54,682 nt of DNA, from NCBI GenBank assembly GCA_947626305.1, contig CANQRP010000001.1, positions 1 to 54,682 of the forward strand, read 5' to 3'. The notes under the pieces are model-generated. The model had not been told where the DNA came from. It searched no databases and saw only the letters and a program-made list of their open reading frames with translations. Shown in pieces: positions 22,344 to 54,168 of this stretch. The position numbers were made by a program, and so were the translations under genes. The DNA comes from an uncultured Clostridia bacterium (GTDB lineage Bacteria > Bacillota > Clostridia > Christensenellales > Borkfalkiaceae). The first letter of the stretch is position 1, and each line of letters begins with the position of its first letter.

Positions 22344-22344
22344 A

Positions 22345-27927: not shown

Positions 27928-28977
27928 TTAAAATACGTTTTTGCGAATAAACTCGGGGTCGTGTGCCGCCGCTTTTGCCGTTTCCGCCGAGATCGCCTTC
28001 TGACGGTAGAGGGCGATGATGGAATTGTCCATCGTGACAGACCCTTCCGCCGCGGAAGTTGCCATGGAGCTCGCGATCTGCGGGGTCTTGCCCTCGCGGA
28101 TGAGGTTGCGGATCGCGGGAGTGACCATCATCAACTCGCACGCCGCCACTCTTCCGCCGGTCTTGCGGGGCAACAGCTGTTGGGAAAGCACCGCCATGAG
28201 CGTGGTGGAAAGCTGCATTCTGATCTGCTTTTGCCGCATTTCGGGGAAAACGGAGACGATACGGTCGATCGAGTCCGGTGCGGAATTGGTGTGCAACGTG
28301 GCAAATACCAAGTGACCGGTCTCCGCCGCCGTGAGCGCCGTCTCGATCGTGTCGAGATCGCGCATTTCGCCGATGAGAATGACGTCGGGGTCTTCACGCA
28401 AGATCGCCCTCAGACCGCTGCCGTAGCTCTCGGTGTCCGCCCCGATCTCACGTTGGTTGATGACGCACTTGTCGGGTTCGTAAATGTACTCGATGGGGTC
28501 TTCCAAAGTGATGATGTGGGCGTTTTCGGTATGGTTGATGCGGTTGAGCATCGCCGCGAGCGTGGTGGATTTACCGGAGCCCGTTTCGCCCGTTACCAGC
28601 ACGATGCCGCGGTTGAGCCCGGGCAACGTCTGCACCATGGGCGGAAGACCGAGCGTGTCGAGCTCGGGGATCTTATCCGAAAGGATACGGATCGCCGCCG
28701 AGACCGAACCCTGCTGGCGGAATAAATTGATACGGCAACGAATGTGCCCCGGGAAGGTGAGCGCGAGGTCGAGCTCCCCCATTTTTTCGATTTTTGTGTA
28801 CTCCGCACCCGCCATTTCCCGCGCGTAAAACTCGCAGTCGGCAGCGGTAAGCGGAGCGCCGAAGTTCTGAAGCTGACCGTCGATCCGGATCCGGGGGGGC
28901 AAATTGCGCACGAGGTGAATATCGGACGCGCGCATGTCTCTCGCCTGCGCGATCAACCTGTTGAGTTCCATCGGCAT
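27928..28977 (-). CDS. pilT: type IV pilus retraction ATPase PilT
   Basis: 349 aa. ASDIHL, Walker A GETGSGKSTT, Asp box, Walker B ILIGEMRD, His box ATLHTNSA. Confidence 0.95.
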   Translation of the reverse strand: MPMELNRLIAQARDMRASDIHLVRNLPPRIRIDGQLQNFGAPLTAADCEFYAREMAGAEYTKIEKMGELDLALTFPGHIRCRINLFRQQGSVSAAIRILSDKIPELDTLGLPPMVQTLPGLNRGIVLVTGETGSGKSTTLAAMLNRINHTENAHIITLEDPIEYIYEPDKCVINQREIGADTESYGSGLRAILREDPDVILIGEMRDLDTIETALTAAETGHLVFATLHTNSAPDSIDRIVSVFPEMRQKQIRMQLSTTLMAVLSQQLLPRKTGGRVAACELMMVTPAIRNLIREGKTPQIASSMATSAAEGSVTMDNSIIALYRQKAISAETAKAAAHDPEFIRKNVF

Positions 28978-29051: not shown

Positions 29052-30752
29052 TCAACCGAGGTCGGCATTGAGCACGCCGAGCGCCTCTTCCGCCGAGGTG
29101 ATGCCCGCAAGCACCAATTTGCGGCAACTCTCCCGCAGAGTGGAGAAGGTGCCCTGTTTTACCCCTTCTGCAAGCTGCGCGGTGTGATGACCTTCCGCGA
29201 TCGCGCGCTTGAAGTCCTTATCGAGCAGCAAAATTTCGAATACGCCCGTCCGCCCGACGTAGCCGGTGTGATAGCAGTGCGGGCAACCCTTGCCGCGGTA
29301 GAAGCGGACGTCTTCCGCCGTTTCTTCGCACCCGAGCGCCGCGAGCACCTCGGGCGAGGGGGTATAAGCCTCCTTGCAGTGAGGGCAAATGCGCCGCACC
29401 AACCGCTGGGAGATCACGCCGTTGAGCGCGTCTGCGATCATGTAGGGCGCCACGCCGATGTCCACCAAACGATCGATCGCGGAGAGCGCGTCGCTCGTAT
29501 GCACGGTGGAGAGCACCAAGTGACCCGTGATCGCCGAACGAACGGCGATCTCCGCCGTCTCGCCGTCACGGATCTCACCGATGGCAATGATGTCGGGATC
29601 CTGACGGAGGATCGCGCGCAAGCCTTCCGCAAAGGTCATGTTGACTTTTTCGTTGATCTGAACCTGATTTACGCCGTCGATGTCGTACTCGATGGGGTCT
29701 TCCAAAGTGACGAGGTTGACTTCGTCGGTATTGAGAGAACGGATCATCGTGTACATCGTGGACGATTTGCCCGAGCCGGTCGGTCCCACAATGAGGACCA
29801 TGCCGTGCGCGGCGGAGAGCAGGCGATGATATTTTTCGAGATTTTCGCCTTCGAGACCAATGGCGTGCGCGTCGAGCAGCTGCGCGGATTTATCGAGCAG
29901 ACGGACGACGACCTTTTCCCCGTACATCGTGGGGATGGTGGACATACGGAGGTCGATATTGTGCCCTTTTACGAGGACGTTTGCACGACCGTCCTGCGGG
30001 ATGCGGGACTCGGCGATGTCCATTCCGCCCATGATCTTCAAGCGGGATACCACCGTGCGTTTGAGCTCGTCGGGTACGGTCAGCACCGTGCGCAACTTGC
30101 CGTCGATCCTCATGCGGACGACGACTTCATCCGCGCGGGGTTCGATGTGCACGTCGCTCGCGCGTTCGGAGGAAGCGCGTTCCAGAATGGAATTAACGAG
30201 GCGGACGGTGGGCGCGGATTGCTGCGTCTCTTCCGAGACCTCTTCGCTGTGGGGACGGGCGGACGCCGCCGTGTCGCGGGCGTTCGTGTCGCCGCGCATC
30301 TCCTCGATGGCACGCGCGACCCCCTCGTTGCCGTAGAGGGTGGAGATCGCCTTGTTCACCGCCACCGTAGTGGCGATCTTGGGCAAAATGCGCTTACGCG
30401 TTGCCGTACGGACCTCTTCGAGCGCGACGAAATTCAACGGGTCGGACATTGCAAGCGTGAGCTCGTCTTTATTGAGCCGTACGGGAACAACGCCGTGCCG
30501 ACGCGCAATATTCTTGGGCACGAGCGAAGCGAGCTCGATGGGGATGCGCACTTTGGAAAGATCGATGAAATCGATCCCGAGCTGCATCTCGAGCGTTTCG
30601 ATGAGGAGTTGTTCGTTGATGATGCCCTCTTCGATCAGAATCGTACCGAGACGCTCGTGCTTGGTCTTTTGCAATTCAAGCGCCTGATTAAGCTGTTCCT
30701 GCGTGATAGCACCATTGTTGACGAGGATATCGCCTAAACGAAAGTATTCCAT
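29052..30752 (-). CDS. pilB: type IV pilus assembly ATPase PilB (GspE family) with N-terminal MshEN-type domain
   Basis: 566 aa. Walker A GPTGSGKSST, ILRQDPDII, tetracysteine CPHC...CPHC. N-terminus carries two RLGxx..G....L...L..Q motifs. Confidence 0.95.
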   Translation of the reverse strand: MEYFRLGDILVNNGAITQEQLNQALELQKTKHERLGTILIEEGIINEQLLIETLEMQLGIDFIDLSKVRIPIELASLVPKNIARRHGVVPVRLNKDELTLAMSDPLNFVALEEVRTATRKRILPKIATTVAVNKAISTLYGNEGVARAIEEMRGDTNARDTAASARPHSEEVSEETQQSAPTVRLVNSILERASSERASDVHIEPRADEVVVRMRIDGKLRTVLTVPDELKRTVVSRLKIMGGMDIAESRIPQDGRANVLVKGHNIDLRMSTIPTMYGEKVVVRLLDKSAQLLDAHAIGLEGENLEKYHRLLSAAHGMVLIVGPTGSGKSSTMYTMIRSLNTDEVNLVTLEDPIEYDIDGVNQVQINEKVNMTFAEGLRAILRQDPDIIAIGEIRDGETAEIAVRSAITGHLVLSTVHTSDALSAIDRLVDIGVAPYMIADALNGVISQRLVRRICPHCKEAYTPSPEVLAALGCEETAEDVRFYRGKGCPHCYHTGYVGRTGVFEILLLDKDFKRAIAEGHHTAQLAEGVKQGTFSTLRESCRKLVLAGITSAEEALGVLNADLG

Positions 30753-30789: not shown

Positions 30790-30817
30790 ATTATCACAAA
30801 AACCGAAACTTTGTCAA
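30790..30817 (-). promoter_or_regulatory. sigma-A-type promoter TTGACA-16-GATAAT (TGT extended) for pilB
   Basis: Coding-strand read TTGACAaagtttcggtttttgtGATAAT, ~37 nt upstream of the pilB ATG. Confidence 0.55.
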
Positions 30818-30907: not shown

Positions 30908-33670
30908 TCACTCTTTTTCGTTGCCGAGCAGCTGATCCTTCAACACTTTCATGAGACGGGGAATGTCAATCGGCTTAGCAATGTGGGCATTCATCCCGCA
31001 CTCGGCGGCGAGGCGGCGGTCTTCGTCGAACGCGTTCGCCGTCATCGCAATGATGGGAACGGAGGCGAGCCGTTCGTCTTCGAGCGCACGGATGGCACGG
31101 GTCGCCCGATAGCCGTCCATGACGGGCATCTGTACATCCATCAGCACGATGTCGTAATGACCCGGCTCGGAGTTTTTGACTTTTTCCACCGCAACGGAGC
31201 CATCCTCCGCCGTCTCCACTTCGAAGCCGCTCTCGGTCAACAGTTCCTCGGCGATCTCGCGGTTGAGTTCGTTGTCTTCGACGAGGAGGACGCGCTTCCC
31301 CTTGAATTCTTCAACGTCCATCGCGGCGGAAAGCTGCGGCGGCTCTTCTTTCTTGTTCGAATCGATGACAGATACGAGCGTTTCGCGCAGCTCGGACAGG
31401 AAGATGGGTTTGTTGCAATAGGCGGTGACGCCGATGTCCTTTGCCTCGTCCATGATGGCGGTGACGTCGTATGCCGTGATGATGATAATGGGAATGTCGT
31501 CGCCGATGATCTTTCGGATCCGACGGACGATCTCGAACCCGCTCAGATCGGGCATCACCCAGTCGATGATATACACGGAGAAACCGTCGCCGACTTCCAA
31601 CGCCTGGTGGGCGCGGAGCACCGCCTCTTTTCCGTACATCGTCCACTCGGCGCGCATGCCGATCCGCATGAGCATTTTGGATACGCTGTCGCAAGTGTCG
31701 AAATTATCGTCCACGACGAGCGCGCGCATCCCCTCGAGTTCGTGTATCACGTCGAACTGCTTGCTCTCCGTCTGTAAACGGAACTGCAAATTGATGATGA
31801 ATTCGGTCCCTTTGTCCTTTTCGGTCACGAGGTCGATGGTGCCGCCCATCGTATCGACGATGCTCTTGGTGATCGCCATGCCGAGCCCGGTGCCCTGTAT
31901 CCCGCTTACTGTGGAAGTGCGTTCCCGTTCAAAGGGTTCGAAAATATGCTTTGCGAACTCCTGGCTCATGCCGATGCCCGTATCCTTCACCCGGATCTCG
32001 TAGGCGCCGTAGCCCGCGGGTGCACCCGCTTTTTGGCGGATGGTGAGCGAAATGGAGCCGCCCGCCGGAGTGAATTTGATGGCATTGGAGAGAAGATTCA
32101 GCAAAATTTGGTTGACATGCAGCTTGTCGCAGAATACGTCTTCGTCCATGACGTCGAGCGTATCCATGTAGAAATTGAGCTGCTTGCTCTTCATCTGCGT
32201 TTGGATGATGTTGCGCATATCGCGGAAAATATCCGAAATGCTGCACGCCTTCTCTTCGATATTGAGTTTTCCGCTCTCGATGCGGGACATATCGAGGATG
32301 TCGTTGATGAGCGAGAGCAGATGATTGCCCGACGACATGATCTTTTTGAGATAGTCCTGCACACGTTCTTTGTCGTTGATGTTGGTCTCGGCGAGCGCCG
32401 TGAAGCCCAAAATGGCGTTCATCGGGGTGCGGATGTCGTGCGACATATTGGAGAGGAAGGTGGTTTTCGCACGCTCCGCCGCTTCCGCCTTATGCAATTT
32501 TTCTTCGAGGACGGCGCGCTCCACCGATTTTGCGATCGCCTCCTTGGCGGTTTTGCGGATCCACAAAAGATACAGGGCAAGCGCGACCGCCAACACCGAG
32601 CCGACCACGATAAATACGATCTGCACCGACTTTACGTTGCTGAACGCAACGCTATCGGGAATGGCGATCAGCACGCTCCAACGCGGCGCCGCATCCCCCA
32701 CGGGCATGTAATAGATATGCGTCCACTCCTTTCGGCTATCGGACCAGATCTGAGCGCTGCCCGAGTCGAGCGCGATCACGTCGTTTTGGAACGCTTCCAT
32801 GGAATCCCAGCCGCGGATCTTGTGCCCCGCATAGTCGCTGAAATAGCCGAGCTCGTAGTCCTCGATCGGCTTACCTTCCGCGTCGTAGGCGTGCATGGTA
32901 TCCATGATCATTTCGTACTGCTTCGTCTCGTCGCCGCTGTCGTTGCGGGAGAGGACGTCTACGATCGCCACATCGGCATTGTCGTTGTAGATGTTCCGCA
33001 CTTTGAGCTGTTCGGGAAGGGACGAAAGCGGTGTAACGCCGCACAGCAACGCCACGATCTCATTGTCGCGCAAAACGGGAACGTATTGCTGCACGATCTG
33101 CACGCCCTCCATTCCCTTGCGCCTGCTGACCTCCCGCGACGAGATAAAGTCGCGGAAGCCGCCCTCCTCCGTGCGGAGCAGCGAGACAAGTCCCTCGTAT
33201 GCCGCTTGCGAGATGGGGAAATTTGACAGCCCTTCGTCGGGCAGGAACACGTCGCCGCTCGGCACATAGATCCTGAGATTCATCATCGCCTGGATGGGCT
33301 CGACGAGCGCGATGTCTTCCGCGATCTTTCGACGGAACTCCGCGAGAGCTGCCTCTTTTTCGGGCTCCGGGACGTCGAGATCGACGTCGAACGCGTCGGA
33401 TCCCGCGACGATCTCCGCCGTCGCGTCCAACACTTCCTTATCGCGCTGGAATTTGGAGCGGATCTGGTCGATGACCGTATGAGCCGCGTCGTCCAACTGC
33501 TCGTACGCTCTCCGGTATACGATCCGATAGCATCCGATGTACGCCGCGATCAGACCGGCAACGACCAGCAGGATCAGCAGGATGGTCGCAAAAAAATTTT
33601 TCGTTTCCGCGGTCCGGTTCTTCAACGTGATCTTTCCGTCCCGCTGTTTGGGTGTTTCGTGTTCGGACAT
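30908..33670 (-). CDS. hybrid sensor histidine kinase with two receiver domains
   Basis: The start at 33670 has a GGAGAA RBS; the ORF is open to 33715. TM, sensor region, TM. H-box SHDIRTPMNAI, GTGLGMAI. REC1 VYIIDWVMPDLSG, REC2 DIVLMDVQMPVMDG. Confidence 0.9.
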   Translation of the reverse strand: MSEHETPKQRDGKITLKNRTAETKNFFATILLILLVVAGLIAAYIGCYRIVYRRAYEQLDDAAHTVIDQIRSKFQRDKEVLDATAEIVAGSDAFDVDLDVPEPEKEAALAEFRRKIAEDIALVEPIQAMMNLRIYVPSGDVFLPDEGLSNFPISQAAYEGLVSLLRTEEGGFRDFISSREVSRRKGMEGVQIVQQYVPVLRDNEIVALLCGVTPLSSLPEQLKVRNIYNDNADVAIVDVLSRNDSGDETKQYEMIMDTMHAYDAEGKPIEDYELGYFSDYAGHKIRGWDSMEAFQNDVIALDSGSAQIWSDSRKEWTHIYYMPVGDAAPRWSVLIAIPDSVAFSNVKSVQIVFIVVGSVLAVALALYLLWIRKTAKEAIAKSVERAVLEEKLHKAEAAERAKTTFLSNMSHDIRTPMNAILGFTALAETNINDKERVQDYLKKIMSSGNHLLSLINDILDMSRIESGKLNIEEKACSISDIFRDMRNIIQTQMKSKQLNFYMDTLDVMDEDVFCDKLHVNQILLNLLSNAIKFTPAGGSISLTIRQKAGAPAGYGAYEIRVKDTGIGMSQEFAKHIFEPFERERTSTVSGIQGTGLGMAITKSIVDTMGGTIDLVTEKDKGTEFIINLQFRLQTESKQFDVIHELEGMRALVVDDNFDTCDSVSKMLMRIGMRAEWTMYGKEAVLRAHQALEVGDGFSVYIIDWVMPDLSGFEIVRRIRKIIGDDIPIIIITAYDVTAIMDEAKDIGVTAYCNKPIFLSELRETLVSVIDSNKKEEPPQLSAAMDVEEFKGKRVLLVEDNELNREIAEELLTESGFEVETAEDGSVAVEKVKNSEPGHYDIVLMDVQMPVMDGYRATRAIRALEDERLASVPIIAMTANAFDEDRRLAAECGMNAHIAKPIDIPRLMKVLKDQLLGNEKE

Positions 33671-33711
33671 ATCATTCTCCGCCCTTGTCGGCACCGACGC
33701 TCCCGCCGTGC

Positions 33712-34068
33712 TCAAAGGCTCGCTTCAAACGTTTTGATCGCCTCTACGGTCTTTTCATAATCCGCCTGTACGGGAGGGAGCAACTCCGCAGCGCCACCGA
33801 GCTCTCCTCCGCGGAGCGATTCGGTAAGCGCCGTGGAAGATTTTTCGAGCGCGGTAAAGCCCAAGTTCTGGCACATGCCCTTGATGGTGTGGGCGGCGCG
33901 GAAAGCCTCCGGCGCGTTTCCCTCCGCCAGAGATCGCAAAAGCAGTTGGTAACTGCCGTCCGCGGGGAATTTCAGCATGAACTTCTGCACGAGCCGTTCG
34001 CTGCGCAGCCTGCCGATCACATCGTCGTAATTGCCTCCGAGCGCCCGATAACATTCCTGAATGGTCAT
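33712..34068 (-). CDS. histidine phosphotransfer (Hpt) domain protein
   Basis: 118 aa with Hpt signature AAHTIKGMCQNLGF. Confidence 0.85.
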   Translation of the reverse strand: MTIQECYRALGGNYDDVIGRLRSERLVQKFMLKFPADGSYQLLLRSLAEGNAPEAFRAAHTIKGMCQNLGFTALEKSSTALTESLRGGELGGAAELLPPVQADYEKTVEAIKTFEASL

Positions 34069-34070
34069 AT

Positions 34071-36137
34071 TTACTCCGTTGATCCTGTGTTGGGAGCGGA
34101 TGTCCCGCTCTCCATTGATGCCTCGTAAAAGTTATAGGTGGCTTTGCCTTGATTTTTGGATGCGTAGAGCGCGAGGTCCGCCTTGCGGAAGAGTTCGCTG
34201 TAACGCTCCTCCCGTTCCTGCATCTCCACCACGCCCATGCTTACGGTGAGGTCGAAATCGCCCACCTTGCCGCAGAGCGATCTGAACACACGCGCGATGA
34301 TGGGACGGATGTCGCCGTCGTACTCGAACACGATGAGGAATTCGTCGCCGCCGATGCGCGCACACAAGTCGTGCACCCGCGTGCTGTGGAGGAGCCGCTC
34401 GGACACCTCCTGTAATACTTTATCGCCGAACAGGTGTCCGTATTCGTCGTTCGCGCTCTTGAAAGAGTCGATATCGAACACGGCGACCGCATATTTCCTG
34501 TCCGGGAAATTGATGAATTTTTGGGGGAGCTCTTCGTTTGCGCCCTCTCGGTTGAGAAGCCCCGTGAGCGGGTCGCGGATGGATTTTTCCCGCAGTTCGC
34601 TCATGGCGATGTGGGTGTCGTTTACGTCTACGAGCTTCCCGATCGCACTTTCGATGGTGGGGTGCATGTCGTCCGTCCAGATGGCACGCATGATGACGTT
34701 GTACCAACGCATCTCCCCTCCGATGGGAAGCTGGCATTCGTGGCGGAACTCGGGGGACTCGGGCGAAGTCCGCTTGAAAAACTCGCCGAGCCGTACGAAC
34801 CAATCTTTCCCGAGCTGCTCCGCGAGAGCGAGATTGCTCGCGGGATCGACGATCTCCTGCCCCACGCCGAATTTCCGCGCCCCCCACGAGGAGAGAACGA
34901 GGATGTTTTCGGCGACCCGATATTCGAACTGGATCTCTTCCGTGAGTTCCGCATAGAAGTTGTACTTCATGCGCTCGTAGTCGAGAAGTTTGAGGGTGCG
35001 TTCGGAAGCGCTCGGACCTTTGGAATGGACCACCGCGTCCGCAAAGTTGCGGATCTCGCGACGGCTCGCATTCTCGCTCGTTTCATGGGAGAGCGTGGTG
35101 CGGATGTTGTCGAATTCGTCCGAAAGGCATTCGAGCAACAGCGGATTGAAGGTCCCGCACTGCCCCGACAAGATCATCGTCTTGGCTTGCTCGGGAGAAA
35201 GGGGCGGTTTGTACACCCGTTCGCTCGTGAGCGCGTCGTACACGTCCGCGAGGGCAACGATCTGGGCGGAGATGGGGATATCGTCCCCTTTCAGCCCGTC
35301 GGGATACCCCCTGCCGTCCCAACGCTCATGATGCCAACGGCAAATTTCATAAGCGTGCTTGATGAGCGGGTCGCCCTTGTGCGCCGCGATCCCTTCGAGC
35401 ATGTTCGCACCGATCATGCTGTGCGTCTTCATCACGGCAAACTCCTCTTCGGTCAGTTTGCCCGGTTTGTTGAGAATTTTATCGTCGATGCCGATCTTCC
35501 CGATGTCATGCAGCGCCGACGCCATGGCGATGACCGAAATATCCGTCTCGCTCAGCGGATAGCGGTCGGTCTTCTTCACAAGTTTTCTGAGCAGGAAATC
35601 GGTGATCGTGCGCACATGAAGGATATGCAGACCGCTCTCGCCGTTGCGAAATTCGACGATGTGGCTCAGAATATCCACCATCATGCTGCTGTTCTGTTCT
35701 TTCTCGTTGATCTGCGCCTCGATGATGCCGATCAACTTTCTCTGCTTGGCGTACAGAAAGATGGTGTTGAGTACGCGGCGATGGACGATGGAGGCGTCGA
35801 ACGGGCGCATGATAAAGTCGGTCGCGCCAAGTTCGTATGCCCGCTCGATCTGCGCCGAAGCCGTCTCCGCGGAGACCATGATGACGGGTAGGTCTTCGAT
35901 GAGACGGGTGCGCTTCATCTCGGTGAGAACGTCGAACCCGTCCTTTTTGGGCATTACGATGTCGAGCAGAACGAGAGAGAAGCGATCGCTCTCTCTCGCG
36001 AGGATCTCGAGGGCGATCTCCCCGTCCTCTGCTTCGGTGACGTCGAATTCATCCGCCAACATATCCGCGAGAATGGAACGGTTCATCTCCGAATCGTCCA
36101 CAATGAGAATTCTTTCCCGCGCCTGTCCTTGCTGCAT
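34071..36137 (-). CDS. response regulator with REC, HD-GYP and GGDEF domains
   Basis: REC LVLLDIVMPKKDG. HD-GYP LHDIGKI...HHERWDGRGYPDGL. GGDEF DPLTGLLNR...RIGGDEFLIVF with RVHD (RxxD) 5 residues upstream. Confidence 0.9.
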   Translation of the reverse strand: MQQGQARERILIVDDSEMNRSILADMLADEFDVTEAEDGEIALEILARESDRFSLVLLDIVMPKKDGFDVLTEMKRTRLIEDLPVIMVSAETASAQIERAYELGATDFIMRPFDASIVHRRVLNTIFLYAKQRKLIGIIEAQINEKEQNSSMMVDILSHIVEFRNGESGLHILHVRTITDFLLRKLVKKTDRYPLSETDISVIAMASALHDIGKIGIDDKILNKPGKLTEEEFAVMKTHSMIGANMLEGIAAHKGDPLIKHAYEICRWHHERWDGRGYPDGLKGDDIPISAQIVALADVYDALTSERVYKPPLSPEQAKTMILSGQCGTFNPLLLECLSDEFDNIRTTLSHETSENASRREIRNFADAVVHSKGPSASERTLKLLDYERMKYNFYAELTEEIQFEYRVAENILVLSSWGARKFGVGQEIVDPASNLALAEQLGKDWFVRLGEFFKRTSPESPEFRHECQLPIGGEMRWYNVIMRAIWTDDMHPTIESAIGKLVDVNDTHIAMSELREKSIRDPLTGLLNREGANEELPQKFINFPDRKYAVAVFDIDSFKSANDEYGHLFGDKVLQEVSERLLHSTRVHDLCARIGGDEFLIVFEYDGDIRPIIARVFRSLCGKVGDFDLTVSMGVVEMQEREERYSELFRKADLALYASKNQGKATYNFYEASMESGTSAPNTGSTE

Positions 36138-36152
36138 GCTTTTTTGCCTCTT

Positions 36153-38411
36153 TTATTCCTCTGATTTTTTGCCGAAGGGGCTGTTGCCGTCGTTCGCTTT
36201 GACTTCGCGGCGGGCAAGACCCTGCTGAATGAGTTTCACGATGTCCTGATAGGGTTCCGTGTAGTCCTGTTCGGGACGGTCGATGCGGGGAAGTCCGCGT
36301 TCTTCCATCACGCGTGCGATGAGGTCGAATGCCAAACGGAGCCGCTTTTCGTTCTTGATGCGGAACAGGCAGGGCGTCTCTTCGCTCGAACGGTTGGAGG
36401 AAGCGTCCTCTACCTTATAGCGTGTGCCGTTGTACTCCGAGGGGTCGAGCGGGAGGAAGAGACAGAGGGTGCTGCCGCGGAATTTCAATTTTGCCACGGT
36501 CCCGCCCGCCTTGAAGGTCTCGTGCTTCCAGCTCAATCTCTCATGCACTTTTTTGTAGGAGAGCAACTCGTTTTTGAGTGCGGAATAATATTTCTGGGTC
36601 TCTTCGTCCGACTGAATGATCTTGGCGCGGAAGCTCCTGTCGTAGCGGAGGGTGCCTCCTTCGACGGACTCTTCTTCGATGACGAGCGGCGCGGCGATCG
36701 CAACTTCTCCCTCCGCTTCGGGACGGCTGCCGAACCCGCCGCTTACGAGAAGACGCTTTGCGAGCCCCTTGTTGACAAGTTCGTAGATGCCCTCGTAGGG
36801 AAGATAGTAGTCCTCGGCGTTGCGCTCATAGCGCTCCGCACCGAGCCGTTCCATCATGACGGTGATGAGTTCCGTTGCCCGCTTCACCCGTCTTTCGTTC
36901 TTGATCCGCATCATGCAGGGGGTTCCTTCGAACGCCTTGCCGCCGGAGACGTCCTCCACCTTGTACTTGCTGTCCGCATAGTCCTTGGGGTCGAGGGCGA
37001 GGAAGAGACAGAGCATCTTTCCGCGGAAGCCGAACTTCGCGATGCCGTCTCTGCCGAGATGATAGCTCTCGCGCTTCCAACTCATGCGGTCCTTCACCTT
37101 GCGGTAGGAGAGAAGTTCGTTTTTGAGCAGAGTATACCAATGCTTCGTATCGTCGCTCGACTGGATGAGCCGCGCCGTAAAGCTGCGGTCATAGCGGAGC
37201 ATGTTCGCCTCTTCTTCGGCAACGGGCGCACTCGCCACAGGTGCCGCCGAGACGGGTTCCACGACCGTGACCGTGTAGGAAGCGCTCATGCCGAGGTATG
37301 TGATGGTGACTTCGTGTTCGCCCGCGACCGTCATGTCGGGAGCGTCCACCTCGAAGTCCTCCGTCTGTTCGCTGAAAGGCGCCGCGTCGTAATCTGCCGT
37401 AACGATGAGCCCGACGCAGTTGAATTCCTCGCCGGTCGCAAATTCGCGGCGCACCACGCTCGTATCGAGCGTAATGCCGACGAGCGCGCGCTCTTCGGCG
37501 ATGAAGATGGGGTAAGTCTGGACCAATTCGCCATAACGGACGACGACGTTCACCATGCCCTTTTGGGAGAGGTCGGGCGTCTCCACGACGAAATCTTCCA
37601 CGCGCTCTTCGTAAGGTTCGGTCTCGAAGCGGGCGATGACTCCGAGCCCTTCGCTCTCGAACTGTTCGCCGATGATGAAGTCGGTCTTCACAAGGTCGAG
37701 GTCGAGCTCGATCGCGATCGGCTGCCGTCCTTCGGCGGGAAGCACCGTGACCGAATACATCTCCACAAAGCCGCCGTAGCGGACATATACCTCTTTTTCG
37801 CCGGGTTCGTCCATGCGGGGCTCCTCGACGTTGTAGGTGTAAATTTCCTCGAAGAAGGGTTCGAGGTTATAATTCATGCGAACGGAGAGCCCGTTGCATT
37901 CGAAGGGCTCGCCCACGCGGAATTCCTTGCGTACCGCGGAAGTATCGAGCAGCATGCCCACGGGATAGCGTTCTTCCTCGGCGACGATCTCCACCGTGTA
38001 GACGGCGCTGAATCCGCCGTATCTGACCGCAACGGAGGGCTTGCCTTCACGGTCGGTCGCGGGAGCGTCCACGGTGTAGCCCGTCACTTGCTCCGTAGCG
38101 GGTTCGCCGTCGTAATTCGCGGTGACGGTAAGTCCGTCGTACTCGAATTCCTCACCCACCTTAAAGCGGCGCTTGACCGCCGTCGTATCGAGCGTAATGC
38201 CGACGAGCGTGCGTTCCTTTTTCTCCGAGACCGCTTGCGCGACGAGGATGCCCTGCTTTCCGCCGGACGACACATGTTTGCGCAGAACGAGCAGGAAGAA
38301 CACGACGAGAGCCACGGCGACGATGAGCAGTTGCACGAGCATCAGGACGAGCACCGTGGTGGAGACGGTCCATTCGAGCTGTTGACCGAAAATAACGACC
38401 AAATACGACAT
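36153..38411 (-). CDS. membrane-anchored protein with four Big_3-like Ig repeats and a duplicated basic C-terminal domain of unknown function
   Basis: The ATG at 38411 gives an N-terminal TM (VLVLMLVQLLIVAVALVVFFLLVL). Four ~80-aa repeats (GITLDT..V...F..GE.F...GL.V.A.Y........V.....D.P....G...V...Y.G....Y.V.V). Two ~150-aa repeats starting LRYDRSF. Confidence 0.75.
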   Translation of the reverse strand: MSYLVVIFGQQLEWTVSTTVLVLMLVQLLIVAVALVVFFLLVLRKHVSSGGKQGILVAQAVSEKKERTLVGITLDTTAVKRRFKVGEEFEYDGLTVTANYDGEPATEQVTGYTVDAPATDREGKPSVAVRYGGFSAVYTVEIVAEEERYPVGMLLDTSAVRKEFRVGEPFECNGLSVRMNYNLEPFFEEIYTYNVEEPRMDEPGEKEVYVRYGGFVEMYSVTVLPAEGRQPIAIELDLDLVKTDFIIGEQFESEGLGVIARFETEPYEERVEDFVVETPDLSQKGMVNVVVRYGELVQTYPIFIAEERALVGITLDTSVVRREFATGEEFNCVGLIVTADYDAAPFSEQTEDFEVDAPDMTVAGEHEVTITYLGMSASYTVTVVEPVSAAPVASAPVAEEEANMLRYDRSFTARLIQSSDDTKHWYTLLKNELLSYRKVKDRMSWKRESYHLGRDGIAKFGFRGKMLCLFLALDPKDYADSKYKVEDVSGGKAFEGTPCMMRIKNERRVKRATELITVMMERLGAERYERNAEDYYLPYEGIYELVNKGLAKRLLVSGGFGSRPEAEGEVAIAAPLVIEEESVEGGTLRYDRSFRAKIIQSDEETQKYYSALKNELLSYKKVHERLSWKHETFKAGGTVAKLKFRGSTLCLFLPLDPSEYNGTRYKVEDASSNRSSEETPCLFRIKNEKRLRLAFDLIARVMEERGLPRIDRPEQDYTEPYQDIVKLIQQGLARREVKANDGNSPFGKKSEE

Positions 38412-38504
38412 AGCGTTACCCCTTTTTCGAAAATTACGCCTGCGAGCGGTTTTGCCGCTTCGCACGCGCGAAAGGCGTGCAATACGCCTTTTTACTCGTA
38501 TACT

Positions 38505-38533
38505 ATTATAAAGCATACTTCGACAAATTGCAA
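38505..38533 (-). promoter_or_regulatory. sigma-A-type promoter TTGCAA-17-TATAAT for the Big_3/RR/Hpt/HK operon
   Basis: Coding-strand read TTGCAAtttgtcgaagtatgcttTATAAT. Leaves a ~87-nt leader with two GC hairpins. Confidence 0.55.
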
Positions 38534-38669
38534 GAGTTTATGAAAGAATTTTTGTTAAAATATTTGGATATATGGGTAAAAATTTGACCCTTTCCCCCAA
38601 AATACGCCTATTTTATGTTTTTTCTCACCCCATGTGCGCATTTCGACCGCAAAAAAACGTCCGCATCCG

Positions 38670-38694
38670 AAAAAAGCCCCGCAAAAAGCGGGGC
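38670..38694 (-). terminator. intrinsic terminator after SBP 38709-40007
   Basis: Minus strand gccccgc-ttttt-gcggggc followed by TTTTTT. Confidence 0.75.
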
Positions 38695-38708
38695 GAACAA
38701 AGACGTTA

Positions 38709-40007
38709 TTATGACCCATCGGCGGATGCGGCGGGGAAATTTGCGATCGCCGAGGCAATATCTTCCCCCCTCCCCACTTTTTGAAGCAGGTTCCACCACG
38801 CCGTGCGCGCTTCCGCCCAACCGGGCGTAATTTGATAGAAGTCGCCGAGATAACGGCTGAATTTGTTGTATTCCGCCATCAGTGCGTCGTTTTCATAGGG
38901 GTCGCGGTCCGTCTTGCGTACGGGAAGATAGGAGGACGTTGTCACCGCACCCACATACTTTTCGCCGTTGATAAAGCGGATGAATTCCTTCGCGGCGGCG
39001 ATGCGTTTTTCGTCCCCGTTATCGAAGATCCCGAACCCCCAAATGCCGCCTTGCAGGGAGGGCTCCCCCTCTGCGGTGGGATATGTCATGGGGAAGATGT
39101 CGAACGAGAGGTCGGGATTGTTCACGGTCTGCTGGATCTCCGCGGAGACGTTCCAGCAAAATGCCATGGCGAGCTTGCCGTTGCAAAACTGCGAGATCTC
39201 GTCGGAACCGACCATCTCGGAGGCGAAGCGGATCCCCTCGGTGTCTCTGAGCAGTTGCAGCGCCTCGATGTTTTCGGGGCTGTCTACGGTGTAGGCGGTA
39301 TGCTCTGCGTTGGTGAACGTTCCGCCGCAGAGATTGTTGACGAGCGCGCGGGTCCCCTGATCTCCCCCCTGTCCACCGCAGTAAACGACGGCAACATCGT
39401 CCTCGATGCCGTTTGCGCGGTAATACTCGCGGATGGCGCCGACCGCTTTGACGAAATTCTCCGTCGTCCAAGTGCGCTCCTCCGGGTCGTCGATGTATTT
39501 CCATGCGTCCGCCGCTTCGAAAATATCGCGGTTGATCGCCATGCAGTGCGTTGTCATGCAGAGCGGATAGATATAATAATCGCCGCTTCCGTTGCGGCAG
39601 GCGCTCGCAACGTTCTCGTAGATCGTTTGCGCGGCGGGCTCCTTCCACAGGTCGTTGAGGTCCGCCATCAGTCCGCGGGCGCCCCAACCCGCCACGAGGC
39701 GCTCCGGTCCTTCGAAGACGAGATCGGGCGCAGAGTCGGATCCGATCGCATTTTCGATCTCTCTATCGCCGTCCGTGTAGTCGACTGCCTTTGCCGAGAT
39801 GTGGATCTCGGGGTGTTCGCGGCGGAATGCCGTGAGGTAGGGCGCCACCGAGCTGACGCTTCCCCAGCCGCCCACGGGATAGGTCCAAAGGGTGAGGGAC
39901 ACTTCGTCTTTCGCGCCCGCGTTCTCCGAAGGATCGCCTTCGGAGGGAGTGCATGCGCAGCAGAAAAGCAGCGCGGCGATCGCGATCGCAGAGAAAAATT
40001 TTTTCAT
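38709..40007 (-). CDS. orphan family-1 solute-binding lipoprotein downstream of a hybrid kinase
   Basis: Start at MKKFFSAIAIAALLFCCAC (lipobox), 5 nt after the kinase stop; the ORF is open to 40109. No adjacent permease or ATPase. Followed by an intrinsic terminator. Confidence 0.85.
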   Translation of the reverse strand: MKKFFSAIAIAALLFCCACTPSEGDPSENAGAKDEVSLTLWTYPVGGWGSVSSVAPYLTAFRREHPEIHISAKAVDYTDGDREIENAIGSDSAPDLVFEGPERLVAGWGARGLMADLNDLWKEPAAQTIYENVASACRNGSGDYYIYPLCMTTHCMAINRDIFEAADAWKYIDDPEERTWTTENFVKAVGAIREYYRANGIEDDVAVVYCGGQGGDQGTRALVNNLCGGTFTNAEHTAYTVDSPENIEALQLLRDTEGIRFASEMVGSDEISQFCNGKLAMAFCWNVSAEIQQTVNNPDLSFDIFPMTYPTAEGEPSLQGGIWGFGIFDNGDEKRIAAAKEFIRFINGEKYVGAVTTSSYLPVRKTDRDPYENDALMAEYNKFSRYLGDFYQITPGWAEARTAWWNLLQKVGRGEDIASAIANFPAASADGS

Positions 40008-40012
40008 ATTCT

Positions 40013-42181
40013 TTACCGTTGTTTGCCGAGAAATTCTTTGAGAAGTTTGCACACCTGCCCCATGTCGATCGGCTTTGCCGTATGCGCATTCATGCCGCAG
40101 GCGAGGCAACGGGCAACGTCGTCGGAGAAGGCGTCCGCACTCATTGCGATGATGGGAACGGTCTTTGCGTCTGCGCGTTCCATTGCGCGGATCGCCTCCG
40201 TCGCCTCGTACCCGGACATCACGGGCATGCGGAGGTCCATAAAGATGACGTCGTAATATCCGATCGAGGAGGCGGCGAACAGGTCCGCACAGATCTTTCC
40301 GTTTTCCGCGGATTCGACGGAGAAGCCCACTTCGGAGAGGAGTTCCTCCGCGATCTCGCGGTTGAGCTCGTTATCTTCGGCAAGGAGCACCCGCTTGCCG
40401 CCGAAATCGGGCAGTTCTTCCGTTTGGGCGCTTTCGTGGAGTTCTTCCGCCGCCCGTTCGAGATCGAGCGCGATGTGGAACTCCGTGCCGATGCCGGGGG
40501 CGCTGGTCATGTCGATGCTCCCCTGCATTGCGTCGACGATATACTTCGTGATCGCCATGCCGAGCCCGGAGCCCTCGATCTGCCTCACCCGTCGGTCGTC
40601 TTCGCGGGCGAACGCCTCGAACACCTTCGACTGGAATTCTTCCGTCATGCCGATGCCCGTGTCCTTCACGCGGAAGTGCACCCGCACGAAGTTTTCGCCC
40701 CGCGGCGACGCCTCTTCGCGGCAGGAGAGCACGATCTCTCCCCCGTCCGGTGTGAATTTTACGGCATTGCCGAGCAGGTTGAGCAAAATTTGGTTGAGCC
40801 GCACGCCGTCGCAGAGCACATATTCGCTCCCGAGCGCATCGAACTCGGTTTTGAGGGAATGCTTCTTCGCCTGCGCCTGCGGCAGCACGATGTTCACCAC
40901 GTTTTCGAGGGTATCTTTGAGGGAGAGCGCCTCGTAGTGCAGCTCGAGCTTGCCGCTCTCGATCTTGGACATATCGAGAATATCGTTGATGAGCCCGAGG
41001 AGGTGGCGGCTCGAGACGGCGATCTTATCGAGACAGTTTTTAACCTGTTCCTTGTTGTCGAGATTGGCGAGCGCGATGGTCGTCATGCCGACGATGCCGT
41101 TCATGGGCGTTCGGATGTCGTGCGACATGTTGGACAAAAAGTCGCTCTTGGCTCTGCTCGCGTGTTCCGCGGTGCGGCGGGTCGCCTCCAATTCGCGCAG
41201 ATGCTTGCGCGTGAGGCGGAAATAGCACACGAACATCACCGACAGGGCGCAGAGGATGATGATACAGCTGATGACCGCCGCGATGCCCCACGCTCTGCCG
41301 AGGTTGTTGACCGTCATATCGAGCGGACCGTACGGCAGCAGGAGGAGCAGGCTCCATTCGGAGAAGGGCAGATCGGTCAAATACAAAAAGCGGCGTTCGC
41401 CGTTGAGCATGAACTGTGCCGAATACTCCTCCCCTTCCGCCATTGCCGTCTGCAATTGGGTGAGGAACACGTCCTTTTTCAGCGTTGCGCCGTCCTTATA
41501 GATGGCGCCGTAGCGCCGACGCACCCGCTCGAAATAATTGGTTTCGTCGATCTCGACGGTGCCGTCGTGCAGGATGATGTTTCCCTCGGAATCGATAATA
41601 AAGTAGTAGATCGAAGCGCTCTCGGTGTCGACGGAGAGGGTGTCGCGGATATAGGAAATGGGGAGCGCGGCGGCGAGGGCGCTGCTCTTTTCGCCGTTTG
41701 CCATATTATATGCCGCGGGCACGCCCATGACGACATAACTGTCGCCGTTGGCGTCGAGCGCCGTCGTCATCGCCTCTTCGCCCGAGAGGATGGACTGCAT
41801 GAACGAGCCGTCTTCCACGGTGAGTTGGTTGCCGTAGAGCATTTCGAATGTGCCGTTTTTTCCGCAGAGCGCGAGATGATCGAACCCGCGTTGGCGGGCA
41901 TGGTAGTTGAGAATGGCGTGCACGGAGGCGTCGTCCGTCTCCCGTTCGGGGGGAACGGCGTCTGTGAGCGCGCTCACCTGCGCAAGGCGGAGTTCGAACG
42001 TGGTGCCGAAGTGCGCGGCGGACTCTTCGCTGAGCCCCGACATATAGAGGGAGCCGAGCTCGCCGATCGCGTCTGCGTCGCGCTTGTTCATGATGCTGAC
42101 CATAACGGAAAAGACCGCCATGCACAACAGAAAGATGCAGACGATACTCACGAGCAAAAAGCGCGCCGTTTTGTTTTTCAT
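40013..42181 (-). CDS. hybrid sensor histidine kinase with one receiver domain
   Basis: TM, ~270-aa extracytoplasmic region, TM. H-box SHDIRTPMNGI, GSGLGMAI. REC DVIFMDLRMPVMSG. Confidence 0.9.
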   Translation of the reverse strand: MKNKTARFLLVSIVCIFLLCMAVFSVMVSIMNKRDADAIGELGSLYMSGLSEESAAHFGTTFELRLAQVSALTDAVPPERETDDASVHAILNYHARQRGFDHLALCGKNGTFEMLYGNQLTVEDGSFMQSILSGEEAMTTALDANGDSYVVMGVPAAYNMANGEKSSALAAALPISYIRDTLSVDTESASIYYFIIDSEGNIILHDGTVEIDETNYFERVRRRYGAIYKDGATLKKDVFLTQLQTAMAEGEEYSAQFMLNGERRFLYLTDLPFSEWSLLLLLPYGPLDMTVNNLGRAWGIAAVISCIIILCALSVMFVCYFRLTRKHLRELEATRRTAEHASRAKSDFLSNMSHDIRTPMNGIVGMTTIALANLDNKEQVKNCLDKIAVSSRHLLGLINDILDMSKIESGKLELHYEALSLKDTLENVVNIVLPQAQAKKHSLKTEFDALGSEYVLCDGVRLNQILLNLLGNAVKFTPDGGEIVLSCREEASPRGENFVRVHFRVKDTGIGMTEEFQSKVFEAFAREDDRRVRQIEGSGLGMAITKYIVDAMQGSIDMTSAPGIGTEFHIALDLERAAEELHESAQTEELPDFGGKRVLLAEDNELNREIAEELLSEVGFSVESAENGKICADLFAASSIGYYDVIFMDLRMPVMSGYEATEAIRAMERADAKTVPIIAMSADAFSDDVARCLACGMNAHTAKPIDMGQVCKLLKEFLGKQR

Positions 42182-42261: not shown

Positions 42262-42792
42262 TTACGTGGTAACTTTGGTGTAGAACGGGACGATGGACAT
42301 CTTATTGGACCAGAGCGTTTTGCCCGAACCGGCGATTTCGATCGTTACGGTGATGACGCCCGTCTTGTCATCCATCCCGAAGGTGAGCGATTGGAGGCTG
42401 ACCTCCTTATAGGCAACCGTGCCGATCGGTTTGAATTCGACCGCGGCGGAGGTAGTCTCACCGTCCCCGCCCACCGTGGAGCGTTCCGACGCGATGATGA
42501 GCATCCCCTCGTCCATATACATGGAGCTGTTGTCCCCGTAAGAGACGCTGTTATAATGCAATTCATCATTTTTGAGCGAAAACTCTTCGCCGAAGCGGAG
42601 TTCGTTGGTGATGATGTCCATAACGTCGGCGCCGAGCACGGCGGCTTTGGAGACCGCCATCATTTGCTCGCCCGTTCCGAAGAGCGCGGAGGTGCCGACC
42701 GCCGCCATGGAGACAAACACGGCGAGGATCGCCACGGCGACGAGCATTTCGGCGAGGGTGACGCCCTTTCTGTTAAAAATTTTCTTTTTCAT
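42262..42792 (-). CDS. minor pilin (prepilin-type N-terminal cleavage/methylation domain)
   Basis: MKKKIFNRKG|VTLAEMLVAVAILAVFVSMAAV with Glu at +5. AAGGAG RBS. Confidence 0.8.
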   Translation of the reverse strand: MKKKIFNRKGVTLAEMLVAVAILAVFVSMAAVGTSALFGTGEQMMAVSKAAVLGADVMDIITNELRFGEEFSLKNDELHYNSVSYGDNSSMYMDEGMLIIASERSTVGGDGETTSAAVEFKPIGTVAYKEVSLQSLTFGMDDKTGVITVTIEIAGSGKTLWSNKMSIVPFYTKVTT

Positions 42793-42801: not shown

Positions 42802-43122
42802 TTAATCGCGGTACGAAGAGTATTGATCGTTGCCGAACTCCCGTACACCGACATTAAATTCCTCGGTTTCCTGACCGTGTTCGTCTTTATCAAATACTCT
42901 AATCTCTGTCTCATGTTCCTTCTTGTTCTGCATTGTCTCCATATCGCTGAGGGCGTCGTAATATTTGTCGTCCTCTTCCTTCGCTTTGAGGTTGAGGCTC
43001 ATGGACGCGGCGTACATCGAGGCGATGAGCGCGCAGCCGAACGCCACCACGAGCACGGCGACGAGGAGCTCCGCAAAGCCCTCGCCCTTTCTCGAACGCA
43101 ATTTTTTACTCAATTTCCGCAT
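42802..43122 (-). CDS. small minor pilin-like protein
   Basis: MRKLSKKLRSRKG|EGFAELLVAVLVVAF. Glu falls at +5 if cleaved after RKG. GGAGG RBS. Confidence 0.7.
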   Translation of the reverse strand: MRKLSKKLRSRKGEGFAELLVAVLVVAFGCALIASMYAASMSLNLKAKEEDDKYYDALSDMETMQNKKEHETEIRVFDKDEHGQETEEFNVGVREFGNDQYSSYRD

Positions 43123-43138: not shown

Positions 43139-43630
43139 TCATCCGTCGGTCTTATCCGCTTCGCCGCGCGAGATCTTGACGTTTGCTTTCTTCCAAGTGA
43201 TTTCGACTTTCTTTGATTGTTTTTCGGTGACGGAACCGGTAGTTCCGTCCCCGGTATAGTTGTATTCCGGCACGCCCTTTTCGGGAGATTCGCTCACGGT
43301 CGCCGCCCAATAGAGGTTGATGGCGTAGGAATCGCCCACGCTGTCCCCTTTATATAAAAAGGAAAAGAGCAGGTCGTAATTGGCTTTCATCACGAGAGTG
43401 CACTCCACAACGCCGAAAAGAGTATTATCCGGTTTGATCGTGAAAGAATGATACAGATCAGCGGGCAGCGTGGGAGTAACGGGGTTGCTCGATTTATCCA
43501 CACTGCTGTACCACTCCTGCGGGACGGACAGATAGGGCACGAGGTCATCGCAATGGTCGCGAATCGCCAGCGCAATACGAGACTTATAAACGCCATCTCT
43601 GACGCTCCCTTTTATCTCGCCCACCGGCAT
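43139..43630 (-). CDS. hypothetical protein, possibly the C-terminal part of the preceding pseudopilin
   Basis: 163-aa ORF with no signal or pilin N-terminus and a weak RBS. Its frame is -1 relative to ORF 43633-43986, across a G5 run. Confidence 0.5.
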   Translation of the reverse strand: MPVGEIKGSVRDGVYKSRIALAIRDHCDDLVPYLSVPQEWYSSVDKSSNPVTPTLPADLYHSFTIKPDNTLFGVVECTLVMKANYDLLFSFLYKGDSVGDSYAINLYWAATVSESPEKGVPEYNYTGDGTTGSVTEKQSKKVEITWKKANVKISRGEADKTDG

Positions 43631-43632: not shown

Positions 43633-43986
43633 TTACTTTATACCCCCATCTGTATTATTGCCTGTGAGGATATTCAAAGAATACTCATCGGTATAGGTCC
43701 GCTGAGGGGTTTCGTCTTTGTGGAAGGTCCAACTATGCGTATAGTCGAAGTTGATTGTCGCCGAGGTATATTTGAGTCCATTAAAGACATCGGCAACAAA
43801 GAGAGCGGCGGAAGTGACGGAGTAGTAGGGTTGACGGTCTTCCTCGGCGTGGGAATAGCGCCCGGCGTTGGCGGCAGCCATGGTGAGCGCGGACACGCCC
43901 GCGAGGGCGCAGAGCAAGAACAGGAGCATGGCAATGGTAATGGACGCCCCTCTTCTGCAATGAAATTTTCTCACAATTTTCTTCAT
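43633..43986 (-). CDS. PilX/GspK-like pseudopilin lacking Glu5
   Basis: MKKIVRKFHCRRG|ASITIAMLLFLLCALAGVSAL. GGAGGGAAG RBS. Confidence 0.65.
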   Translation of the reverse strand: MKKIVRKFHCRRGASITIAMLLFLLCALAGVSALTMAAANAGRYSHAEEDRQPYYSVTSAALFVADVFNGLKYTSATINFDYTHSWTFHKDETPQRTYTDEYSLNILTGNNTDGGIK

Positions 43987-46504: not shown

Positions 46505-46538
46505 CTTGGCGCCGCCGGTTCCGATCGGGTCGCCGGCT

Positions 46539-47339: not shown

Positions 47340-47363
47340 CGAGCTACTACCGTAATTTTGAAA

Positions 47364-54120: not shown

Positions 54121-54138
54121 AATTTCCCCTCTGATGGT

Positions 54139-54167
54139 ATCATAACAAATCCGCCCCGTCTTGTCAA
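54139..54167 (-). promoter_or_regulatory. sigma-A-type promoter TTGACA-17-TATGAT (TGn extended) for the LytTR/kinase operon
   Basis: Coding-strand read TTGACAagacggggcggatttgtTATGAT, immediately after the terminator of the upstream gene. Confidence 0.55.
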
Positions 54168-54168
54168 G

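Follow-up and report, generated by a model that had tools for sequence, protein, structure and literature searches.

A phosphorelay cassette within a clostridial type IV pilus cluster and its predicted link to c-di-GMP and PilB

Why does a set of phosphorelay genes lie inside a cluster of type IV pilus genes? The question is raised by contig CANQRP010000001.1 of an uncultured Clostridia bacterium (Borkfalkiaceae), whose complete 54.7-kb length (54,682 nucleotides, nt) is the window analyzed here. Type IV pili are a main adhesion and colonization device of gut Clostridia, and their control in Oscillospiraceae-like bacteria is little known. In this contig a phosphorelay cassette is inserted between a block of minor-pilin genes and pilB, within a Clostridia-type type IV pilus cluster. 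The cassette encodes hybrid histidine kinases (HKs), a histidine phosphotransfer (Hpt) protein and a response regulator (RR) that joins receiver (REC), HD-GYP, PAS-like and GGDEF domains. A His-Asp-His-Asp relay ending in a cyclic di-GMP (c-di-GMP) enzyme is the obvious reading of its intact, conserved motifs and gene order. We consider the best explanation of the whole, with a probability of about 0.58, to be a pilus-embedded multi-kinase phosphorelay that would set the c-di-GMP read by PilB.

In minus-strand order the genes run from the minor pilins through HK2 and its solute-binding protein (SBP), a terminator and a promoter-like site to a Big_3-repeat gene, the RR, the Hpt protein and HK1. 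After HK1 come a promoter and then PilB, PilT, PilC, a GIY-YIG open reading frame (ORF), the major pilin, PilD, PilM, a PilN-like and a PilO-like gene. At the opposite end of the pilus cluster, in convergent orientation, stand HK3 and its SBP. The relay genes and their signals are:

17311-20283 (Pfam-scanned ORF 17173-20283), plus strand: hybrid histidine kinase HK3; Pfam HisKA, HATPase_c and two REC
20297-21553, plus strand: orphan lipoprotein SBP of HK3, carbohydrate-type SBP_bac_1/8 by Pfam, with an LLPGC lipobox; 13 nt after HK3
30790-30817, minus strand: near-consensus sigma-70-type promoter before pilB; TTGACA, 16 nt, TG-GATAAT; 11/12 positions plus an extended -10
30908-33670 (ORF to 33715), minus strand: hybrid histidine kinase HK1; Pfam HisKA, HATPase_c and two REC; GGAG ribosome-binding site before the ATG at 33670
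33712-34068, minus strand: monodomain Hpt protein of 118 amino acids, His60 in AAHTIKG; Pfam Hpt, E 1.3e-9, 38.6 bits against a cut-off of 24.6
34071-36137, minus strand: the RR; Pfam REC, HD_5/HD and GGDEF
36153-38411, minus strand: membrane-anchored Big_3-repeat protein of 752 amino acids, heading the RR-Hpt-HK1 unit; Pfam Big_3
38505-38533, minus strand: promoter-like site for the Big_3-RR-Hpt-HK1 unit; TTGCAA, 17 nt, TATAAT
38676-38694, minus strand: strong intrinsic terminator closing the HK2-SBP unit directly after the SBP gene; GCCCCGC-TTTTT-GCGGGGC, then TTTTTT
38709-40007, minus strand: orphan lipoprotein SBP of HK2, sugar-binding type, Pfam SBP_bac_1; 5 nt after HK2
40013-42181, minus strand: hybrid histidine kinase HK2; Pfam weak dCache_1, HisKA, HATPase_c and one REC
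42262-42792, 42802-43122, 43139-43630 and 43633-43986, minus strand: four minor-pilin/pseudopilin genes directly upstream of HK2; Pfam N_methyl on 42262-42792, prepilin-like N-termini

Because of the terminator after the HK2-SBP pair and the promoter-like sites before the Big_3 gene and before pilB, the region is three transcription units rather than one. The Hpt gene was originally predicted to sit tightly between a hybrid kinase and the regulator, and the sequence bears this out: 2 nt separate the RR stop codon from the Hpt ATG, and 41 nt separate the Hpt stop codon from the HK1 ATG.

We examined whether each position of a phosphorelay is occupied by intact residues. HK1 consists of a transmembrane segment (TM), an extracytoplasmic sensor of ~300 amino acids, a second TM, HisKA (H426), HATPase_c and two receivers (D718 and D860). 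HK2 has a dCache sensor between its TMs, followed by HisKA (H354), HATPase_c and a single receiver (D649), and HK3 has a dCache-like sensor in the same place, then a PAS-like domain, HisKA (H531), HATPase_c and two receivers (D821 and D962). The H-box SHDIRTPMN occurs in all three, and all five receivers keep the acidic pocket (DD/ED), the phospho-acceptor Asp, T/S and KP. The kinase side of the relay is complete in HK1, HK2 and HK3, each with the H-box His, the ATPase domain and a C-terminal receiver. Pfam and sequence thus agree with the original prediction that all three hybrid kinases end in receivers; since each kinase stops at its last REC, none carries a fused Hpt. The terminal receivers share 50-58% identity with one another, against 25-36% with the REC1 domains, the RR receiver and a LytTR receiver in the window. 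The kinase cores match NCBIfam LuxQ_Vibrio at E 1e-82 to 1e-93, yet far below its equivalog cut-off.

A phosphorelay through Hpt-less kinases needs a separate Hpt protein, and one is present. We trained a hidden Markov model on 83 Hpt orthologues and searched the 527 six-frame ORFs of at least 50 amino acids with filters disabled. It returned solely 33712-34068, so the predicted count of one Hpt stands for this contig, to which it applies alone. H60 is invariant in 83/83 orthologues, while K63 and G64 are kept in 82/83; His60 is the predicted phospho-acceptor.

Judged by their sequences, the three kinases are paralogous transmembrane proteins with homologous dCache-like sensors. The sensor profiles of HK3 and HK2 are homologous (hhalign probability 99.3%, E 7.6e-21) and the HK1 sensor is distantly homologous to that of HK3 (96.6%); across the sensor pairs of the three kinases the probabilities are 99.3%, 96.6% and 77.7%. 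Pfam at E <= 1 named no family for the HK1 and HK3 sensors, save a weak PAS_9 in HK3. Two of the kinases were said to have coupled orphan SBPs. This is what the sequence holds, with spacings of 13 nt (HK3) and 5 nt (HK2) and no permease gene adjacent to either SBP gene. The HK2 SBP matches over its full length PDB 9rsi, a 'sugar ABC transporter, sugar-binding protein' (E 1.1e-53), and the HK3 SBP has weak PDB matches to maltose, chitin-oligosaccharide and mannotriose binding proteins. HK3 and its SBP recur together as a conserved two-gene module in ~20 species. Since both SBPs are of sugar type, HK2 and HK3 probably read oligosaccharides through contact between SBP and dCache sensor. LuxP-LuxQ is the classic case of such a contact. 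Stimulation of sensor kinases by SBPs is well established (PMC8050422).

The RR family is publicly annotated as 'diguanylate cyclase' only. Its AlphaFold2 model (mean pLDDT 79.6) comprises a REC domain (8-113), a long helix (115-146), an HD-GYP domain (152-350), a disordered linker of 45 residues (352-396), a PAS-like beta-sheet domain (~400-505) and a GGDEF domain (520-670). The middle domain is called PAS-like from its secondary-structure pattern in the model and from Foldseek matches to PAS-GGDEF proteins; Pfam at E <= 1 gives nothing for it. In the receiver, D14, D15, D59 and S89 are present and conserved (D59 in 89/91 homologues). Position 111 is Arg-Pro where receivers usually have Lys-Pro. 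The Arg recurs in 90/90 homologues from the fetched loci and in most of the 150 best 50%-identity REC-HD-GYP representatives (97 R vs 6 K by a rough regular-expression count), and in sequence terms is a hallmark of the RR subfamily.

Both halves of the output appear to be enzymes. The HD-GYP motifs, H210-D211 and HHERWDGRGYP (269-279), have their residues kept in 90-91/91 homologues. In Foldseek the domain aligns with PA4781 at TM 0.88 and 30% identity, and PmGH is matched as well. The phmmer search of PDB sequences likewise gave PmGH (E 6.6e-34), with PmGH and PA4781 both at E ~1e-33. The GGDEF domain scores 109.9 bits against NCBIfam TIGR00254 (cut-off 37.4), Foldseek also matches PleD, WspR and PAS-GGDEF proteins, and the domain has D555, D557, K560, N563, D564, an RVHD I-site (587-590) and GGDEF at 596-600. 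Among 71 full-length homologues RxxD is kept in 70/71, the GGDEF residues in 65-71/71 and the listed catalytic, Mg and GTP residues as a whole in ~63-71/71. With both active sites and the RxxD inhibitory site intact, the RR can probably both make and break c-di-GMP.

The gene directly downstream of HK1 encodes a candidate reader of c-di-GMP. The surrounding genes form a monoderm (Clostridia-type) type IV pilus cluster, and no Pfam match to an outer-membrane secretin (Secretin) was found among the ORFs scanned. Besides the minor pilins, whose synteny is kept in L003, L004, L025 and L084 (numbers prefixed L denote loci), the cluster contains:

21753-22373, minus strand: PilO-like protein, assigned by position and conserved synteny only
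22345-22998, minus strand: PilN-like protein, assigned by position and conserved synteny only
23008-23991, minus strand: PilM; Pfam PilM_2
24007-24786, minus strand: prepilin peptidase PilD; Pfam Peptidase_A24
25062-25544, minus strand: major pilin with a prepilin G/FTLAE cleavage motif; Pfam N_methyl, NCBIfam IV_pilin_GFxxxE
26056-26355, minus strand: small GIY-YIG nuclease-domain ORF between pilC and the pilin gene; homologues in the same place in L082, L085 and L100
26645-27862, minus strand: PilC platform protein; Pfam T2SSF
27928-28977, minus strand: PilT retraction ATPase; Pfam T2SSE
29052-30752, minus strand: PilB extension ATPase; Pfam T2SSE and MshEN

The motif that defines MshEN, RLGxx(L/V/I)(L/V/I)xxG(L/V/I)(L/V/I)xxxxLxxxLxxQ, occurs twice, 5 residues apart (PMC11656802). 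PilB residues 5-57 contain two such 24-residue motifs, RLGDILVNNGAITQEQLNQALELQ (5-28) and RLGTILIEEGIINEQLLIETLEMQ (34-57), separated by the 5-residue spacer KTKHE, and the same residues score 65.8 bits against NCBIfam NF053729 'c-di-GMP_motif' (cut-off 38). PilB is thus a predicted c-di-GMP receptor of the MshEN type. Sensing of c-di-GMP by this domain has been demonstrated for V. cholerae MshE, M. xanthus PilB and C. perfringens PilB2, the last of which binds c-di-GMP through an MshEN-type motif (PMC11656802). In an alignment of 83 PilBs, read by eye, the motif is conserved wherever the N-terminus was recovered. We also considered whether it is specific to PilBs that stand beside the cassette, and rejected this: it is general in clostridial PilBs.

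Together the parts suggest the following order of events. HK1, encoded in the RR-Hpt operon, would autophosphorylate, and from its terminal REC the phosphoryl group would move first to Hpt His60, then to RR Asp59. HK2 and HK3, each with its sugar-type SBP, would add phosphate to this same Hpt or withdraw it, and glycan signals might in this way be summed at the Hpt as in the LuxPQ/LuxU funnel. Phosphorylation of the RR receiver would act through helix 115-146 on the adjacent HD-GYP phosphodiesterase; this is expected because the helix runs continuously from REC to HD-GYP, whereas a disordered linker leads to the PAS-like-GGDEF half. The effect is most likely activation, by analogy with RpfG and PA4781. 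The PAS-like-GGDEF half would supply product-inhibited c-di-GMP synthesis, and with the HD-GYP domain under the relay the phosphorelay could thus set the net c-di-GMP level. PilB would read this level through MshEN and adjust pilus extension. The locus is probably a sugar-sensing switch for adhesion pili. A more specific version is doubtful as a whole: the RR would be a phosphorylation-switched bifunctional source and sink of c-di-GMP dedicated to PilB, with up to three oligosaccharide-sensing kinases summed via one Hpt, so that dietary or host glycans decide pilus extension.

We then asked how far the arrangement is conserved. The RR, PilB and HK3 served as queries for gathering loci by similarity; the frequencies given here are conditional on this choice and, wherever a contig stops, are minimum values. 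Most closely related are rabbit-gut metagenome-assembled genomes (MAGs) of uncultured Clostridia, whose RR is ~80% identical in amino acids and whose PilB reaches 90%; Oscillospiraceae, Oscillibacter and Acutalibacter follow at 50-55%. An Hpt gene lies within 700 nt on the same strand in 41/44 loci with a full-length RR, and 32/44 also have a flanking hybrid kinase (lower bounds). The RR-Hpt pair is a conserved cassette. It stands directly upstream of pilB in all 20 distinct species-level genomes, from rabbit gut, that have both the cassette and a PilB of at least 70% identity, whereas PilB orthologues at 71% identity or below are otherwise without it. The pilus link is therefore clade-specific but robust, and the synteny check proposed with the original prediction finds the RR-Hpt pair stable and HK1, HK2 and the Big_3 gene variable.

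The pairing also occurs outside the Clostridia. REC-HD-GYP homologues of ~500 amino acids that have no GGDEF domain stand beside Hpt and hybrid kinase genes in Fibrobacter MAGs (L059, L061, L068 and L075) and likewise in Treponema MAGs (L064 and L071), so the pairing is older and broader than the GGDEF-bearing Clostridia version.

The original prediction had all three kinases converge on the single Hpt. That one Hpt can receive from several kinases is suggested by four lines of evidence, all of it circumstantial. Searches with the sensor domains only place an HK2-type kinase right after Hpt in ~30 loci, an HK1-type kinase next to RR-Hpt in 9 loci outside the PilB-derived set, and an HK3-type kinase right before RR-Hpt in L006 (with SBP) and L037; an HK3-type kinase also neighbours RR-Hpt in L163, L168, L179, L182, L184 and L185. 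Clusters with one Hpt and several hybrid kinases recur in L168, L040 and L062, and in L168 the RR, the Hpt, two kinases, an HK3-type kinase and an SBP follow one another on one strand. Seven pilus-linked genomes (L084, L085, L088, L089, L091, L092 and L128) keep RR-Hpt intact with HK1 missing, as deduced from a gap between Hpt and pilB of just 45-224 nt vs ~2.8-3.0 kb where HK1 is present; on a neighbour-joining tree of PilB these losses fall on at least three independent branches. In three of the seven (L088, L092 and L128) the 22-kb locus has no hybrid kinase besides HK3, which is accompanied by its SBP; this pair keeps its position at the cluster's far end in 7/8 loci that extend so far. 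The fourth line is the likeness of the three kinases themselves, in their terminal receivers (50-58% identity) and in their homologous sensors. Alternatively, HK1 alone would use the Hpt and the RR, and the HK2-SBP and HK3-SBP pairs would be independent sugar sensors with partners elsewhere that stand beside the pilus cluster by chance. Several observations favour this and weigh against convergence. HK2-SBP forms a unit of its own, closed by a strong terminator, and several clade members lack it. HK3-SBP is convergent at the far end and, in 15/21 close-homologue loci, has no RR-Hpt or pilus genes within the available flanks; often, therefore, it must have a different partner or one whose gene lies elsewhere. 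Many further hybrid kinases occur in relatives (L224 and L230 share their assemblies with L084 and L085), and additional RR or Hpt paralogues occur in at least one relative, Gemmiger formicilis ATCC 27749 having two RR paralogues (L043 and L073). The circuit had also been called genomically self-contained, which, given these further kinases and regulators, is not claimable from a 54.7-kb contig. Nevertheless, we regard the one-kinase relay as unlikely: the seven genomes would be left with an RR-Hpt pair and no HK1, HK2- and HK3-type kinases are operon partners of orthologous RR-Hpt pairs in >35 other loci, and the terminal receivers of HK1-HK3 form one close paralogue group.

The output raises a similar choice. 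The original prediction had c-di-GMP read out by MshEN-PilB, and the position of RR-Hpt before pilB in 20 genomes, together with the NF053729 match, is consistent with this. It may instead be that the cassette sets a global c-di-GMP pool, or acts by protein contacts as RpfG does with GGDEF/PilZ partners, and that its place beside pilB reflects co-expression or insertion history. No pilus genes lie close to most of the orthologous RR-Hpt-kinase cassettes (those of Oscillibacter, Acutalibacter and others), and MshEN is ancestral in clostridial PilBs, cassette or not; the output could therefore be global rather than pilus-specific, and pilB has a strong promoter of its own. Such a pool is, however, distinctly improbable as the whole explanation: in 20 species the cassette has kept its place directly before pilB although HK1, HK2 and the Big_3 gene have been gained and lost, independent linkages of RR-Hpt to pilus genes occur in L125, L025 and L031, and scans of the window gave no other c-di-GMP receptor and no riboswitch. 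That the HD-GYP domain cleaves another cyclic dinucleotide, for example 3'3'-cGAMP as the V-cGAP enzymes do, with a regulatory or allosteric GGDEF domain that is no cyclase, is very improbable. The third-best PDB sequence match of the RR is indeed V. cholerae cGAMP phosphodiesterase 3 (5z7c, E 1.5e-27), but the best matches are the c-di-GMP phosphodiesterases PmGH and PA4781, the catalytic, Mg-binding and I-site residues of GGDEF are kept in ~70/71 homologues, and the adjacent PilB carries a c-di-GMP motif. The pilus-embedded phosphorelay read by PilB remains our preferred explanation, with three more points to be held against it. The sign of the phosphorylation effect on HD-GYP comes from analogy alone; activation of the RR may differ from that of canonical receivers because Arg111-Pro replaces the conserved Lys-Pro; and the in vitro ATPase rate of C. 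perfringens PilB2 is unchanged by c-di-GMP (PMC11656802).

Each element resembles a known system and differs from it in definite ways; the whole would act as a funnel of the LuxU or HptB kind, with an output like that of RpfG and a receptor like PilB2. In Vibrio, several Hpt-less hybrid kinases, LuxPQ and CqsS among them, converge on the monodomain Hpt protein LuxU and through it on LuxO. The present locus likewise encodes Hpt-less kinases and one monodomain Hpt and has kinases in which a tandem-PAS/dCache-like periplasmic domain would read a separate SBP, as LuxQ reads LuxP, convergence being predicted here. In contrast, its terminal regulator is a c-di-GMP enzyme where LuxO is a sigma-54 activator, its SBPs are SBP_bac_1/8 sugar binders and not of the LuxP type, and its host is a monoderm of the Clostridia. 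Output and SBP class differ, so the locus is not a Lux system. In Xanthomonas, the hybrid kinase RpfC signals via Hpt to the REC-HD-GYP phosphodiesterase RpfG, which affects type IV pilus motility through c-di-GMP. The design of hybrid kinase, Hpt and REC-HD-GYP is shared. However, RpfC has a fused Hpt and senses diffusible signal factor via membrane helices, whereas the Hpt here is a separate protein of 118 amino acids; RpfG is without the PAS-like and GGDEF domains that the RR has; and the Xanthomonas pilus link goes through GGDEF/PilZ partners and not through a neighbouring MshEN-type PilB. The separate Hpt and the extra PAS-like and GGDEF domains place the locus outside the RpfC/RpfG group.

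In C. difficile the known input to the pilus genes is a c-di-GMP riboswitch. Rfam found no riboswitch of any kind, c-di-GMP riboswitches included, in the whole window at gathering thresholds and none in 21500-48500 at E <= 1, and riboswitch control of pilin or pilus genes in the C. difficile manner was rejected; any control by c-di-GMP would therefore be post-translational. PA4781 (4r8z) and PmGH (4mcw) share with the RR the HD-GYP fold and metal-binding motif, and PA4781 is also REC-linked; the RR differs in its added PAS-like and GGDEF domains and in a receiver with an invariant Arg for Lys. In Pseudomonas aeruginosa several hybrid kinases signal to HptB, whose network includes the diguanylate cyclase HsbD (PMC5085249). 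That network is, similarly, a multi-kinase Hpt hub tied to c-di-GMP synthesis and surface behaviour. There, in contrast, the direct target of HptB is HsbR (phosphatase/partner-switch), the cyclase is a separate protein and the system is proteobacterial. C. perfringens PilB2 and V. cholerae MshE share with the present PilB the tandem 24-residue motif with its 5-residue spacer at the ATPase N-terminus, PilB2 coming, moreover, from a monoderm clostridial pilus, but their loci encode no upstream phosphorelay or dedicated c-di-GMP enzyme.

A full-text literature search found no published description of the cassette or of its insertion in a pilus locus. What looks undescribed is the arrangement alone, its parts all being of familiar types; for every step there is a precedent in Proteobacteria or Clostridia, and no concept is overturned. 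The novelty originally claimed was thus too broad, as c-di-GMP binding by PilB2 has been published (PMC11656802) and both Hpt funnels and the feeding of REC-HD-GYP proteins by kinases are textbook in Proteobacteria. What the locus offers is a testable wiring, from sugar-type SBPs and dCache kinases through Hpt and a dual c-di-GMP enzyme to MshEN-PilB. If true, it would connect glycans to the pilus by a circuit not yet described in monoderms, with a receiver subfamily that has Arg for Lys. The cassette is widely distributed among gut Clostridia and occurs in cultured strains of Oscillibacter, Acutalibacter and Intestinibacillus in which biochemistry could be done, and the repeated loss of HK1 with RR-Hpt kept provides natural experiments on phosphorelay rewiring.

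Other genes of the window were also inspected. The Big_3 protein that heads the RR unit contains four Ig-like Big_3 repeats, and its C-terminal domain of ~150 amino acids is duplicated (~438-590 and ~612-760 of the 787-amino-acid ORF). It matches nothing in NCBIfam or among PDB sequences, and its C-terminal repeats have no Pfam match at E <= 1. The gene is kept upstream of the RR in many clade members.

On the HK3 side, positions 10-17009 of the minus strand hold a secreted nuclease and nucleoside-salvage block, with genes for an aBig_2 protein, SNase, an SBP_bac_8 ABC transporter, Endonuclease I, thymidine kinase, pyrimidine-nucleoside phosphorylase, 5'-nucleotidase, cytidine deaminase, phosphopentomutase and PNP/UDP phosphorylase. 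As the block adjoins a pilus cluster that contains PilT and is thus retractile, extracellular DNA may be used here. A 'DNA-foraging' locus, in which the pilus and HK3-SBP are tied to this block, was not supported, as the block stands beside HK3 or the pilus genes in no relative. At the other end of the window lie:

48760-51204 and 51220-51981, minus strand: two glycoside hydrolase genes of family GH16
52050-53441, minus strand: GHKL (AgrC/ComD-like) kinase, adjoining the GH16 genes
53401-54354, minus strand: LytTR response regulator

Together with the sugar-type SBPs, the GH16 genes hint that beta-glucan-derived signals matter at the locus. Upstream of the minor pilins, four ORFs of 488, 380, 266 and 249 amino acids (44004-48113, minus strand) have no family match; a link to the pilus is probable, because two of them have homologues located after PilO in L094 and L104.

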